From an uncultured Candidatus Saccharibacteria bacterium (lineage in GTDB: Bacteria > Patescibacteriota > Saccharimonadia > CAZHVB01): a stretch of DNA of 64,000 nucleotides. The position numbers and the translations under genes are program-made. Under the pieces are notes generated by a model. The model did no database searches, was not told the DNA's origin, and saw only the letters and a program-made list of their open reading frames with translations. Of the stretch, positions 51,274 through 51,891 are shown piece by piece; positions within the stretch are counted from its first letter, which is position 1, and each line of letters begins with the position of its first letter. The stretch spans positions 26,133 through 90,132 of the forward strand of contig CAZRIY010000002.1 in NCBI GenBank assembly GCA_964600295.1. Direction: 5' to 3'.

Positions 51274-51642
51274 ATGGCAACCGCCGACAAAAAAATTCCT
51301 CAAGATTCTGCGGCCGCGTCAGGCCCCAAGGGTGGGCCGGGTCAGAGGATCCGTATCCGCCTGAAGGCTTATGACCACAAGTTGATTGATCAGTCGTCCA
51401 AGCAGATCATTGAAACGGCTCTGCGCACTGGAGCAAAAGTTTCGGGACCAATCCCACTGCCAACTGATCGTACTAGCTACACTGTGATCAAAAGTCCCCA
51501 CATCTTCAAAGATTCGCGTGAGCAATTCGAAATGCGCGTCCACAAGCGGTTGATTGATATCACCGAGCCTACATCCAAGACTATCGACAATCTGATGAAC
51601 CTGAACTTACCTGCGGGAGTGGATACTGAAATTAAAATGTAA
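51274..51642 (+). CDS. rpsJ: 30S ribosomal protein S10 (N-terminally extended)
   Basis: [16 protein letters not shown] core. Ends ...GVDTEIKM-stop, which is repeat copy 1. Confidence 0.93.
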
Positions 51643-51648
51643 TCGGCG

Positions 51649-51668
51649 CCTGCCTGCCGGCAGGCAGG
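51649..51668. repeat. perfect 20-nt palindrome CCTGCCTGCCGGCAGGCAGG directly after the rpsJ stop
   Basis: Self-complementary over its full length; same family as the copies in nusA, rpoB and rplV. Confidence 0.7.
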
Positions 51669-51691
51669 TCGACACCGAAATCAAGATGTAG
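51668..51691 (+). repeat. second copy of the rpsJ 3' end (gtc gac acc gaa atc aag atg tag = VDTEIKM-stop)
   Basis: Differs from copy 1 (gtg gat act gaa att aaa atg taa, 51619-51642) only at synonymous positions. Confidence 0.65.
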
Positions 51692-51868
51692 ATGAAAAGA
51701 CTACCGAAGATGCTTAATCATCCGGTACCTATTTTATTAACATTAGGTGGGTTATTTATTGTAGCCTCGATCTTTATGGGCGAATTTTTTGTGATACCCG
51801 GGATTATTCTAATGATAATCGGAGTGTGGTACTGGAAGGGAACGGTTTGGCCATTCTCGGACAAATAA
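51692..51868 (+). CDS. small membrane protein, 58 aa (MKRLPKMLNHPVPILLTLGGLFIVASIFMGEFFVIPGIILMIIGVWYWKGTVWPFSDK)
   Basis: ORF bracketed by repeat copies 2 and 3, with two hydrophobic helices; it is below the ORF-track size cutoff. Confidence 0.4.
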   Translation: MKRLPKMLNHPVPILLTLGGLFIVASIFMGEFFVIPGIILMIIGVWYWKGTVWPFSDK

Positions 51869-51870
51869 TT

Positions 51871-51891
51871 GAAACCGAAATTAAGATGTAA
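51871..51891 (+). repeat. third copy of the rpsJ 3' end (gaa acc gaa att aag atg taa = ETEIKM-stop)
   Basis: Imperfect direct repeat of copies 1 and 2. Confidence 0.6.

Follow-up and report, generated by a model that had tools for sequence, protein, structure and literature searches.

Multiple copies of the rpsJ 3′ end in a Candidatus Saccharibacteria contig and the possible serial replacement of a ribosomal gene end

Three copies of the rpsJ end in the window

The DNA investigated here, referred to as the window, comprises 64,000 nt of contig CAZRIY010000002.1 (assembly GCA_964600295.1) of a Candidatus Saccharibacteria bacterium, and all positions are given in its numbering. It contains rpsJ, the gene for ribosomal protein S10, and the 3′ end of this gene is present in three copies (Table 1). 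An earlier note on this DNA, made from the sequence alone, had reported the three copies with their positions and sequences, and these proved to be exact. The core of copy 1, the end of the working gene, reads GTG GAT ACT GAA ATT AAA ATG TAA and lies at 51619-51642, while the core of copy 2 reads GTC GAC ACC GAA ATC AAG ATG TAG and lies at 51668-51691. The ends are separated by 26 nt (copies 1 and 2) and 179 nt (copies 2 and 3). When both strands of the 64 kb were searched with the degenerate pattern GANACNGARATHAARATGTAR, exactly three matches were obtained, i.e. copies 1, 2 and 3, all on the same strand; 0.01 matches are expected by chance, and three were reached in none of 100 shuffles.

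The claim that the copies differ only synonymously was also borne out. Five sites vary among the three 21-nt copies and all are third codon positions (hypergeometric probability ~0.001 for variation at five of seven third positions and at none of the 14 others). Copy 2 proved to be longer than had been noted. It is interrupted by the six nucleotides AGGCAG (51662-51667), with which it completes a 20-nt palindrome and without which it is a 36-nt rpsJ end. After removal of these 6 nt it was identical to copy 1 at 26 of 36 positions, and all 10 differences were synonymous. Copy 2 is open to its stop codon across 51650-51691 in its own frame, which is +1 relative to rpsJ, and has no start codon. 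Copy 3 carries a lineage-specific Thr codon. Of the window and the 80 genome loci described below (compared loci are designated by L numbers), none but the window, L001 and L039 has Thr at this position of the rpsJ end; it was also observed in the relatives L083 and L085. The possibility, raised earlier, that the copies are part of another conserved open reading frame (ORF) did not hold, and the downstream copies appear to be former rpsJ ends.

The perfect 20-nt palindrome that had been said to precede copy 2 was found at 51649-51668, and the 58-codon ORF that had been said to start right after its stop (ORF58) indeed has its ATG, at 51692, abutting the TAG. No Shine-Dalgarno sequence precedes ORF58. 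A search of 5.8 billion proteins yielded no homologue of its product, comparison with 1.84 billion representative proteins gave two spurious matches only, and there was no PHROG match.

Table 1. Features at the rpsJ locus and in the rpsJ-rplC gap of the window
Feature	Position	Strand	Remarks
rpsJ (ribosomal protein S10), working gene, 122 aa	51274-51642	+	Pfam PF00338 Ribosomal_S10, E = 3.6e-38
Copy 1, working rpsJ end	51607-51642	+	TTA CCT GCG GGA GTG GAT ACT GAA ATT AAA ATG TAA
7-nt junction TCGGCGC, copy 1 stop to copy 2	51643-51649	+	can pair with GTCGA of copy 2, lengthening the hairpin
Perfect 20-nt palindrome CCTGCCTGCCGGCAGGCAGG	51649-51668		left half = L-P-A-G codons of copy 2
Copy 2, putative displaced former rpsJ end	51650-51691	+	CTG CCT GCC GGC (AGGCAG) GTC GAC ACC GAA ATC AAG ATG TAG
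ORF58, putative orphan ORF between copies 2 and 3, 58 codons	51692-51868	+	two hydrophobic segments; ATG abuts copy 2 TAG
Copy 3, putative displaced end	51871-51891	+	GAA ACC GAA ATT AAG ATG TAA; solid homology = 18 nt, 51874-51891
Lineage-specific block	51892-53655		not in relatives; orphan ORFs
Orphan ORF, 178 aa	51905-52441
Promoter-like TTGCTA-17-TATAAT	52471-52500		ends one base before ATG of 147-aa ORF
Orphan ORF, 147 aa	52500-52943		promoter-like site abuts ATG
Hairpin	~52950-52985
Two small membrane ORFs	52989-53291, 53296-53562	-
87-aa membrane protein	53656-53919	+	conserved neighbour
DUF3152 protein, 581 aa	53919-55664	+	conserved neighbour
Promoter-like TTGACA-17-TAGCAT	55682-55710	+
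rplC	55809-56441	+	rest of the S10 operon resumes

Modules with a second rpsJ end in other loci

The window was compared with a genome set of 80 species-level Saccharibacteria loci with related rpsJ, in which the closest S10 was 84% identical to that of the window, and with the results of a metagenome scan for two GARATHAARATGTAR units 25-55 nt apart. By its design the scan could return only loci in which the two units are synonymous variants of each other; only the codon flanking the scanned unit and the cases from the genome set are free of this bias. An rpsJ end followed by a hairpin spacer and a second end, hereafter a module, was found in at least 31 further loci (29 from metagenomes and two from genomes). 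In the genome loci and the window an extra rpsJ end was present in three cases, namely the window, L080 and L041, and in the latter two it lies 32-66 nt past the true stop. The metagenome scan returned 60 loci, of which 29 were linked to rpsJ (28 by a motif test, and L120, which is cut at the contig start). The other metagenome matches, about half (L087, L089, L090, L093, L100, L104 and others), were AT-rich satellites with GAAATNAAAATGTAA units, unrelated to rpsJ.

The spacers could be grouped into families A-G and singletons. Family A has the form AAGGAGCAGTTTAT-CCGCC-NNNN-GGCGG-AAC, family C is GCCTGCCCCGTAGTAGCGCATCGCTCACTACTGGGG, and family D has the form GTTGATATC...ATATCAAC...GTTGATATC. 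Family B consists of (GGC)TGCGAC followed by a CTGCC...GGC hairpin and includes L103, whose rpsJ module contains the exact 20-mer CCTGCCTGCCGGCAGGCAGG of the window. The spacer cores CCGCCNNNNGGCGGAAC, GGCTGCGACCTGCCCGC, CCCCGTAGTAGCGCATCGC and GGCGAGGCAAGCCGGCCGGGG are usable as scan queries. In families A, B, C and G the S10 protein was Saccharibacteria-like; that of families D, E and F and of two singletons was 62-73% identical to the S10 of the window, and the hosts of these modules are, by this protein, probably other Patescibacteria. Several lineages carried the module inside an intact rpsJ-rplC operon.

More than two ends were stacked in some loci, in agreement with the earlier suggestion of several serial ends, which had been made for the window. 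L130 has three ends with two different hairpins between them. Directly after rpsJ, L105 (4792-5106), L138 (8299-8462) and L129 (12893-13005) have three to seven identical tandem units of 49-50 nt, each consisting of an rpsJ end and the hairpin ATATCAAC...GTTGATATC; in L138, as in L101, the last unit has different, AT-rich codons. In L106 (575-1160, oriented) two modules of ~140 nt, ~85% identical to each other, flank a terminator and an ORF of ~83 codons, and each is composed of an rpsJ 3′ end, two hairpins and a second end. The downstream pseudo-rpsJ of L106 is decaying, with two ATG-to-ACG changes and one CGA-to-CAA change, while both of its hairpins are kept by compensatory changes. An array related to those known from clustered regularly interspaced short palindromic repeats (CRISPR) was considered and rejected: the repeat is 15-24 nt, whereas such arrays have repeats of at least 23 nt and variable spacers, the spacers of the tandem arrays in L105 and L138 are identical, and no cas domains were found. 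In L124 (7667-7753, oriented) an insertion of ~87 nt with the terminal inverted repeats TTACAGATTTACAGAT...ATCTGTAAATCTGTAA was observed directly after the stop of the second rpsJ end. It is absent from L126, which is 95% identical to L124 and has a related inverted copy at 3285-3323.

No viral contig showed the two-unit pattern. Duplicated 3′ ends of genes other than rpsJ, sought in the window and 85 loci, were limited to low-complexity Lys/Ala tails. Searches of the literature on an rpsJ attachment site (attB) or on hotspots in Saccharibacteria returned nothing relevant, and as far as these searches show the modules have apparently not been described before.

The recurrence also bears on the quality of the assembly. 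If strain variants of the rpsJ end had been stitched together in tandem at the palindrome, the copies would be an artefact, and they do differ in the way that co-occurring strain alleles differ; palindromes can confuse de Bruijn graphs, and all data are metagenomic. We nevertheless consider this highly improbable. The Logan assembly of run SRR6868922 (L081) was 100% identical to window 51470-57441, i.e. over 5972 nt including the whole feature, and the arrangement of the copies is therefore not specific to one assembler, although both assemblies were made from the same reads. The architecture recurred in dozens of samples and projects, where the contigs carrying it reached up to 576 kb; its spacers are specific to families and compensatory changes are present, and no shared k-mer was evident at the junctions.

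The working end as the probable newcomer

Comparison with the rpsJ ends of relatives, a check proposed in the earlier note, placed copy 2 nearest to the working end of L085. Without its additional 6 nt, copy 2 matched this end at 33 of 36 positions, including all of the last 24, and the working end of L083 at 32 of 36. Copy 1, which is recoded, matched the L085 end at 25 of 36 positions and the ends of L085, L083, L001 and L039 at 25-27 of 36. Judging from its atypical codons, copy 1 would be the most recently acquired end, and copy 3 would be the oldest of the displaced ends.

A similar picture was obtained for the clade of L103 and L095. All seven module-free relatives of these two loci end in TGC GAC GTC GAA ATC AAG ATG TAR, whereas the working ends of L103 and L095 are recoded at five consecutive synonymous sites (GAT GTA GAG ATT AAA/G). 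The 13 codons upstream of the recoded end are nearly identical to those of the relative L069. Downstream of the working end, both loci have TGCGAC, a hairpin and GTC GAA ATC AAG ATG TAA, which by its codons is the ancestral end of the clade, split by the hairpin. Both in the window and in this clade, the downstream copy thus looks like the resident, ancestral end and the working end like the newcomer. In the modules as a whole, the match to the consensus of module-free ends (of 15 positions) was 13.5 for the downstream copies, 13.6 for real ends and 12.7 for the working ends of module loci, and GAG was used in 13 of 28 working ends as against 2 of 28 downstream copies. A recombination breakpoint inside rpsJ was not mappable, the synonymous sites being saturated.

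Divergence and reading frame of the copies

Between the rpsJ of the window and those of its relatives, synonymous sites are near saturation. Divergence of an untranslated copy in place is unlikely, because such saturation predicts changes at codon positions 1 and 2 as well, and none were seen. Since the copies differ only at synonymous sites, the ends would have diverged while they were functional and would have been joined afterwards. The simplest reading of these codon differences is that each copy was, until recently, the end of a working gene, in a genome or lineage of its own. A similar pattern was shown by the codon that immediately precedes the scanned unit, which kept the residue of the host (Ala, Val, Ile or Thr) in 25 of 28 unique modules, in 15 of them by way of another synonymous codon; 17 of the differences at this codon were at position 3 and five at positions 1 and 2.

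The phase from the working end to the next copy was +2 in 16, +1 in eight and 0 in four of the 28 unique modules and varied within family A. Given this variation within one spacer family, there is no fixed frame in which the second unit is translated. Frameshifting, readthrough or hopping (bypass) was rejected as a means of translating copy 2, as the phases are inconsistent with it and an in-frame start is absent.

Purely local mutation would have to explain these same differences. By this account, slippage or template switching at the P-A-G quasi-palindrome CCNGCNGG duplicated the gene end, and the two copies then diverged in place. Several modules, for example those of type D, have the form X-Y-X′-loop-X-Y that is typical of snap-back or template-switch products; the hairpins of the window (51650-51667) and of types B, C and E are built on L-P-A-G codons, and the identical tandem units of L105, L129 and L138 resemble a slippage amplification. 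Copies made in this way are, however, identical at birth, yet those of the window differ at more than a quarter of their 36 sites, with none of the changes at codon positions 1 or 2. In the L103 clade the changes are all in the working copy, and 24 nt of the untranslated copy are ancestral; that all six changes fall within ~7 of 31 mutable sites has a probability of ~1e-4. Partly decayed intermediates would also be expected, but a nucleotide search of the 80 species loci revealed neither decayed copies nor spacer cores lacking a second end. We therefore give local mutation little chance of being the correct explanation.

The palindrome and the hairpin of the window

The segment 51643-51676 folds with -19.4 kcal/mol (z = -2.75), whereas the fold of the copy 3 region is not significant (z = 0.26). 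Near-copies of CCTGCCTGCCGGCAGGCAGG were found elsewhere in the window at 20051-20070, 41837-41856 and 58930-58950. They lie in frame in the C-terminal tails of the ORF at 18903-20228 (N-LPAGRQG-KPAS), of rpoB (K-LPASRQG-KAAKR-stop) and of L22 (S-LPAGQAG-KK), and the first two have ~36 nt in common at ~81% identity. Across ~1.2 Mb of related loci, the only occurrence of the motif CCTGCC..GGCAGG apart from the four in the window was a single one in L103.

Palindromes of the repetitive extragenic palindromic (REP) or bacterial interspersed mosaic element (BIME) type, and those of the Rickettsia type, are known as dispersed repeats. As in REP-like families, where one palindrome has many copies, CCTGCCTGCCGGCAGGCAGG was present in four copies in 64 kb against 0.01 expected, and the window palindrome resembles the repeats of these types in being dispersed and in having three of its copies in frame in C-terminal tails of genes. 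It is unlike them in being only 20 nt long and in that 35 unrelated viral stretches from IMG/VR (L146-L180), with a GC content of 38-68%, contain the identical 20-mer as well; no element was identified from these stretches. In L170 (2239-2330) the 20-mer forms the long variable arm of a phage tRNA-Met, and in L177 it lies at the D-loop position of a tRNA-like sequence. Some of the viral 20-mers are flanked by direct repeats of the adjacent sequence (14 nt in L154, 8 nt in L148 and 7 nt in L164). A literature search for papers containing the 20-mer found none.

An intrinsic terminator at 51640-51700 was rejected as a candidate: a hairpin is present, but it is followed by TCGACACCGAAATC and not by a U-tract, and a terminator scan reported none there. 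No Rfam 15 family was found at the repeats or the hairpin; the five matches in 49000-56000 were all far below the gathering score. One of these, to the fungal snoRNA model RF01505 at 51685-51796, scored 17.7 bits with E = 7.9, where the gathering score is 40, and overlaps ORF58 and the last 7 nt of copy 2.

Neighbouring genes and search for a recombinase

The positions 51643-53655 of the window are lineage-specific relative to the nearest relatives. As far as ~53000 the GC content of the block is 0.42-0.45, compared with ~0.50 in its surroundings. In L039, L083 and L085, rpsJ is followed by no or one gene and then by the 87-aa gene, and the DUF3152 gene follows the 87-aa gene in L039 and in the nearest relatives L082-L085. 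By this gene order, the two genes are markers of the ancestral right flank. The 87-aa gene lies inside the rpsJ-rplC gap in 39 of the 80 species loci. Upstream of rpsJ the window has tuf. The promoter-like site in front of the 147-aa orphan ORF suggests, from its position next to the ATG, a leaderless transcript. The 178-aa ORF found only itself in a homologue search, and its AlphaFold model was unusable (predicted local distance difference test score, pLDDT, 42.6). Searches of Pfam, PHROGs and PDB sequences with the ORFs of the block gave nothing relevant, and an exact-protein lookup returned no record for the S10 of the window. Between fusA and tuf (49314-50083) the window also contains an orphan ORF of 156 aa (49371-49841) and ~240 nt of non-coding DNA; L085 (2147-5607) has five small ORFs between fusA and tuf and a 98-aa ORF between tuf and rpsJ.

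Among the 80 species loci the junction downstream of rpsJ is hypervariable, with distances from the rpsJ stop to rplC ranging from 134 nt to more than 5 kb. The 125 ORFs in these gaps are mostly ordinary genes, including ABC transporter, CTP synthase and peptidase genes, with NUDIX the commonest listed (12), and many gap genes begin within a few bases of the rpsJ stop.

Site-specific integrative elements, which the earlier note had proposed as the source of the copies, were not supported by the locus. In such a classical integration, integrase-bearing islands or phages would target the rpsJ 3′ end, and the copies would be attL, attR and an internal attachment (att) site. A gene end that is directly repeated, with differences in its sequence, is the textbook signature of att sites, a lineage-specific block of 2 kb with lower GC content follows, and the variable length of the rpsJ-rplC gap among species fits as well. 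However, neither Pfam nor PHROGs revealed an integrase, transposase or endonuclease in the block (ORFs 51692-53562), and a further copy of the rpsJ end was found neither at its right border (53560-53655) nor before rplC, all copies being within 285 nt on the left side. The spacings of 26 and 179 nt in the window are far too small for integrative islands, and neither they nor those of 25-55 nt elsewhere would be long enough to form a double-stranded excision circle. Downstream of other modules, 79 ORFs lie within 2.5 kb; they matched 14 families in all (L3, L4, L23, L2, NUDIX and a few others), none of them an integrase or other recombinase, a transposase or an endonuclease, and no such enzyme was among the 25 families listed of the 53 that matched the 125 gap ORFs. 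The housekeeping-like nature of these gap genes and the absence of the two-unit pattern from viral contigs also speak against classical integration, for which we see only a slight chance. What stood of the earlier proposal is the idea of a replacement end, with a working end that looks like a newcomer and a resident end that looks displaced; the integrase island did not. An integron cassette array was rejected too, as there is no integrase, tuf lies upstream and the unit GARATHAARATGTAR is not GTTRRRY; formal attC models were not run.

Proposed replacement of the rpsJ end

The best explanation, to which we give about an even chance, is a serial replacement of the rpsJ end by small DNA pieces, which are non-autonomous because they carry no cargo and no enzyme. 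The three copies of the window would then be the record of at least two successive replacements. In each event a short piece of DNA would have recombined into the rpsJ 3′ end, bringing differently coded last codons and a stop codon together with a short tail, either a spacer able to form a hairpin or a small ORF. From then on the newly arrived end would be the working one, and its predecessor would come to lie in the untranslated region, a few tens of bases further downstream. For the window, this would make copy 1 the current end, copy 2 the previous end, with its ancestral-type codons and 6-nt extension, and copy 3 an older one. The window would be one member of a class that recurs in Saccharibacteria and in other Patescibacteria-like lineages. 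That the working end is of horizontal origin is an inference on our part, as are the sequence of events and the way in which the recombination took place.

The most likely route would be recombination with DNA of related lineages, with a homologous anchor in tuf/rpsJ and a second join, by short homology or illegitimate, at or near the conserved last codons, where a hairpin would favour the join. Homology-facilitated illegitimate recombination, which in natural transformation combines one homologous anchor with one illegitimate join (PMC3240628), is thus the most likely mechanism. Like the events proposed here, it can add foreign DNA beside a conserved gene and leave a partial duplicate of the gene end, and it needs no element-borne enzyme. 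Unlike them, it is not known to yield recurrent, family-structured junctions with hairpins at a single gene end. An enzyme acting in trans that recognises the hairpin is less likely.

Integrative elements that reside in the 3′ ends of tRNA or protein genes carry a replacement end, and att-flanked elements lacking an integrase accrete in tandem; streptococcal conjugative and mobilisable elements use rplL, rpsI, rpmG and fda in this way. The rpsJ modules share with them the direct repeats of a gene end with differences, the newcomer providing the working end, and serial events leading to three or more repeats. They differ in having no integrase or element genes, in repeats that are tens of bases and not kilobases apart, and in their hairpin spacers.

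The closest known parallel, with the order of parts in common, is found in fungal mitochondria, where mobile endonuclease ORF elements (mORFs) replace the C-terminus of atp6, atp9, cox2 and nad3, as in atp6 of Allomyces macrogynus and in Glomus sp. (PMC3630166). The inserted C-terminus is expressed and is strongly divergent in its DNA, with nearly or wholly synonymous differences, while the native C-terminus lies downstream and is the one most similar to those of the nearest relatives (PMC3630166). The same order of gene core, new expressed end, insert and unexpressed native end was found in the window and in the L103/L095 clade, expression being deduced from the reading frame. In contrast to mORFs, the rpsJ modules contain no LAGLIDADG, GIY-YIG, HNH or any other enzyme ORF, and in the window no homing endonuclease ORF lies between the ends, where 26 nt and ORF58 are found instead. 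In the other loci the insert is a hairpin of 25-55 nt; the rpsJ case further differs in that it concerns a bacterial chromosome and rpsJ, that only 6-12 codons are replaced and that up to seven ends are stacked. It is conceivable, though we hold it to be rather doubtful, that miniature, cargo-less insertions bearing a hairpin home into the last codons of rpsJ across Patescibacteria, each with a recoded replacement end, as an enzyme-less counterpart of mORFs. An undiscovered nuclease or recombinase with GAC-GYC-GAA-ATC-AAG-ATG-TAR as its target could have left such insertions as its footprint; equally, they could be an immunity device in which the insertion splits the target while the gene stays intact.

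Several observations weigh against serial replacement. Conservation of the spacer cores far exceeds that of the synonymous sites nearby. Between L088 and L145, with rpsJ 88% identical, the 68-nt stretch that runs from the working-end stop codon to the end of the spacer contained only two differences, while the downstream intergenic DNA is heavily diverged; the spacer cores of L114 and L124 are identical at 21 of 21 positions with rpsJ at 72%, and the type A core is almost unchanged in hosts that have rpsJ 72-78% identical and are not each other's nearest relatives. Compensatory or G-U changes were seen in stems, and in type A there is covariation between the bases that follow the stop and the synonymous codons chosen in the working end (GAGATTA/TAATCTC, GAAATCAA/TTGATTTC and GAGATAAA/TTTATCTC), which suggests, from the paired changes, evolution in place. 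RNAalifold recovered only hairpin 2 of type A, the first hairpin being misaligned, and the covariation of the latter was read by inspection of the sequences. As to the course of events, no enzyme and no donor were found, donor context for the island having been sought through the 178-aa ORF and ORF58, and no empty-site relative of the window was detected, the S10 of the closest genome being 84% identical and the DUF3152 neighbour, through which the nearest relatives were found, at most 52% identical. A tract replacing only 7-12 codons is unusually short for recombination, and the metagenome set was picked by a pattern that admits only synonymous units. The conserved spacers and compensated stems are more easily reconciled with a selected structure of long standing than with a passive scar.

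Such a structure would consist of the hairpin and the second end and would be selected either in single-stranded DNA or in the rpsJ mRNA, as part of its 3′ untranslated region, and it might influence stability or attenuation or couple rpsJ to the next gene. It would go back to one or a few duplications of the last 40-50 nt that selection has since maintained, and the copies of the window would belong to a module of this kind instead of being scars. Besides the conserved cores, this alternative would account for the type A hairpin UCCGCC/GGCGGA, which was kept in all seven cases with one A-U and one G-U variant, for the compensatory differences between the two L106 modules (CCGCC/GGCGG against CCACC/GGTGG, and GAGATAAA/TTTATCTC against GAAATAAAGA/TCTTTATTTC), for the change of the type C stem from GTAGT/ACTAC to GCAGT/ACTGC, and for the presence of the module within an intact operon. 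It leaves the third-position-only variation of the second unit unexplained, and phases of 0, +1 and +2 that vary within one family do not agree with it. Moreover, the two units of one genome do not covary (0-4 differences), prevalence is low and patchy, with three cases in the genome loci and window and with type A hosts that are not nearest relatives, and neither an Rfam family, a U-tract or a terminator nor a significant fold of the copy 3 region was obtained. A selected structured element is on balance unlikely. The conserved cores and the covariation mean that either the inserted pieces evolve as lineages of their own, the working end included, or the module is a selected structure.

If serial replacement of the rpsJ end is correct, an essential and conserved ribosomal gene of ultra-small bacteria would repeatedly exchange its last codons for foreign, recoded ones. 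The old ends would be datable relics and would directly mark recombination between lineages of these mostly uncultivated organisms; being short and situated in the 3′ untranslated region, such relics are never reported by annotation pipelines. The replacement of gene ends known from mitochondria would extend to bacterial chromosomes, where it would proceed without an enzyme gene of its own, and this would point to a new targeting activity or a structured element at the rpsJ stop codon.

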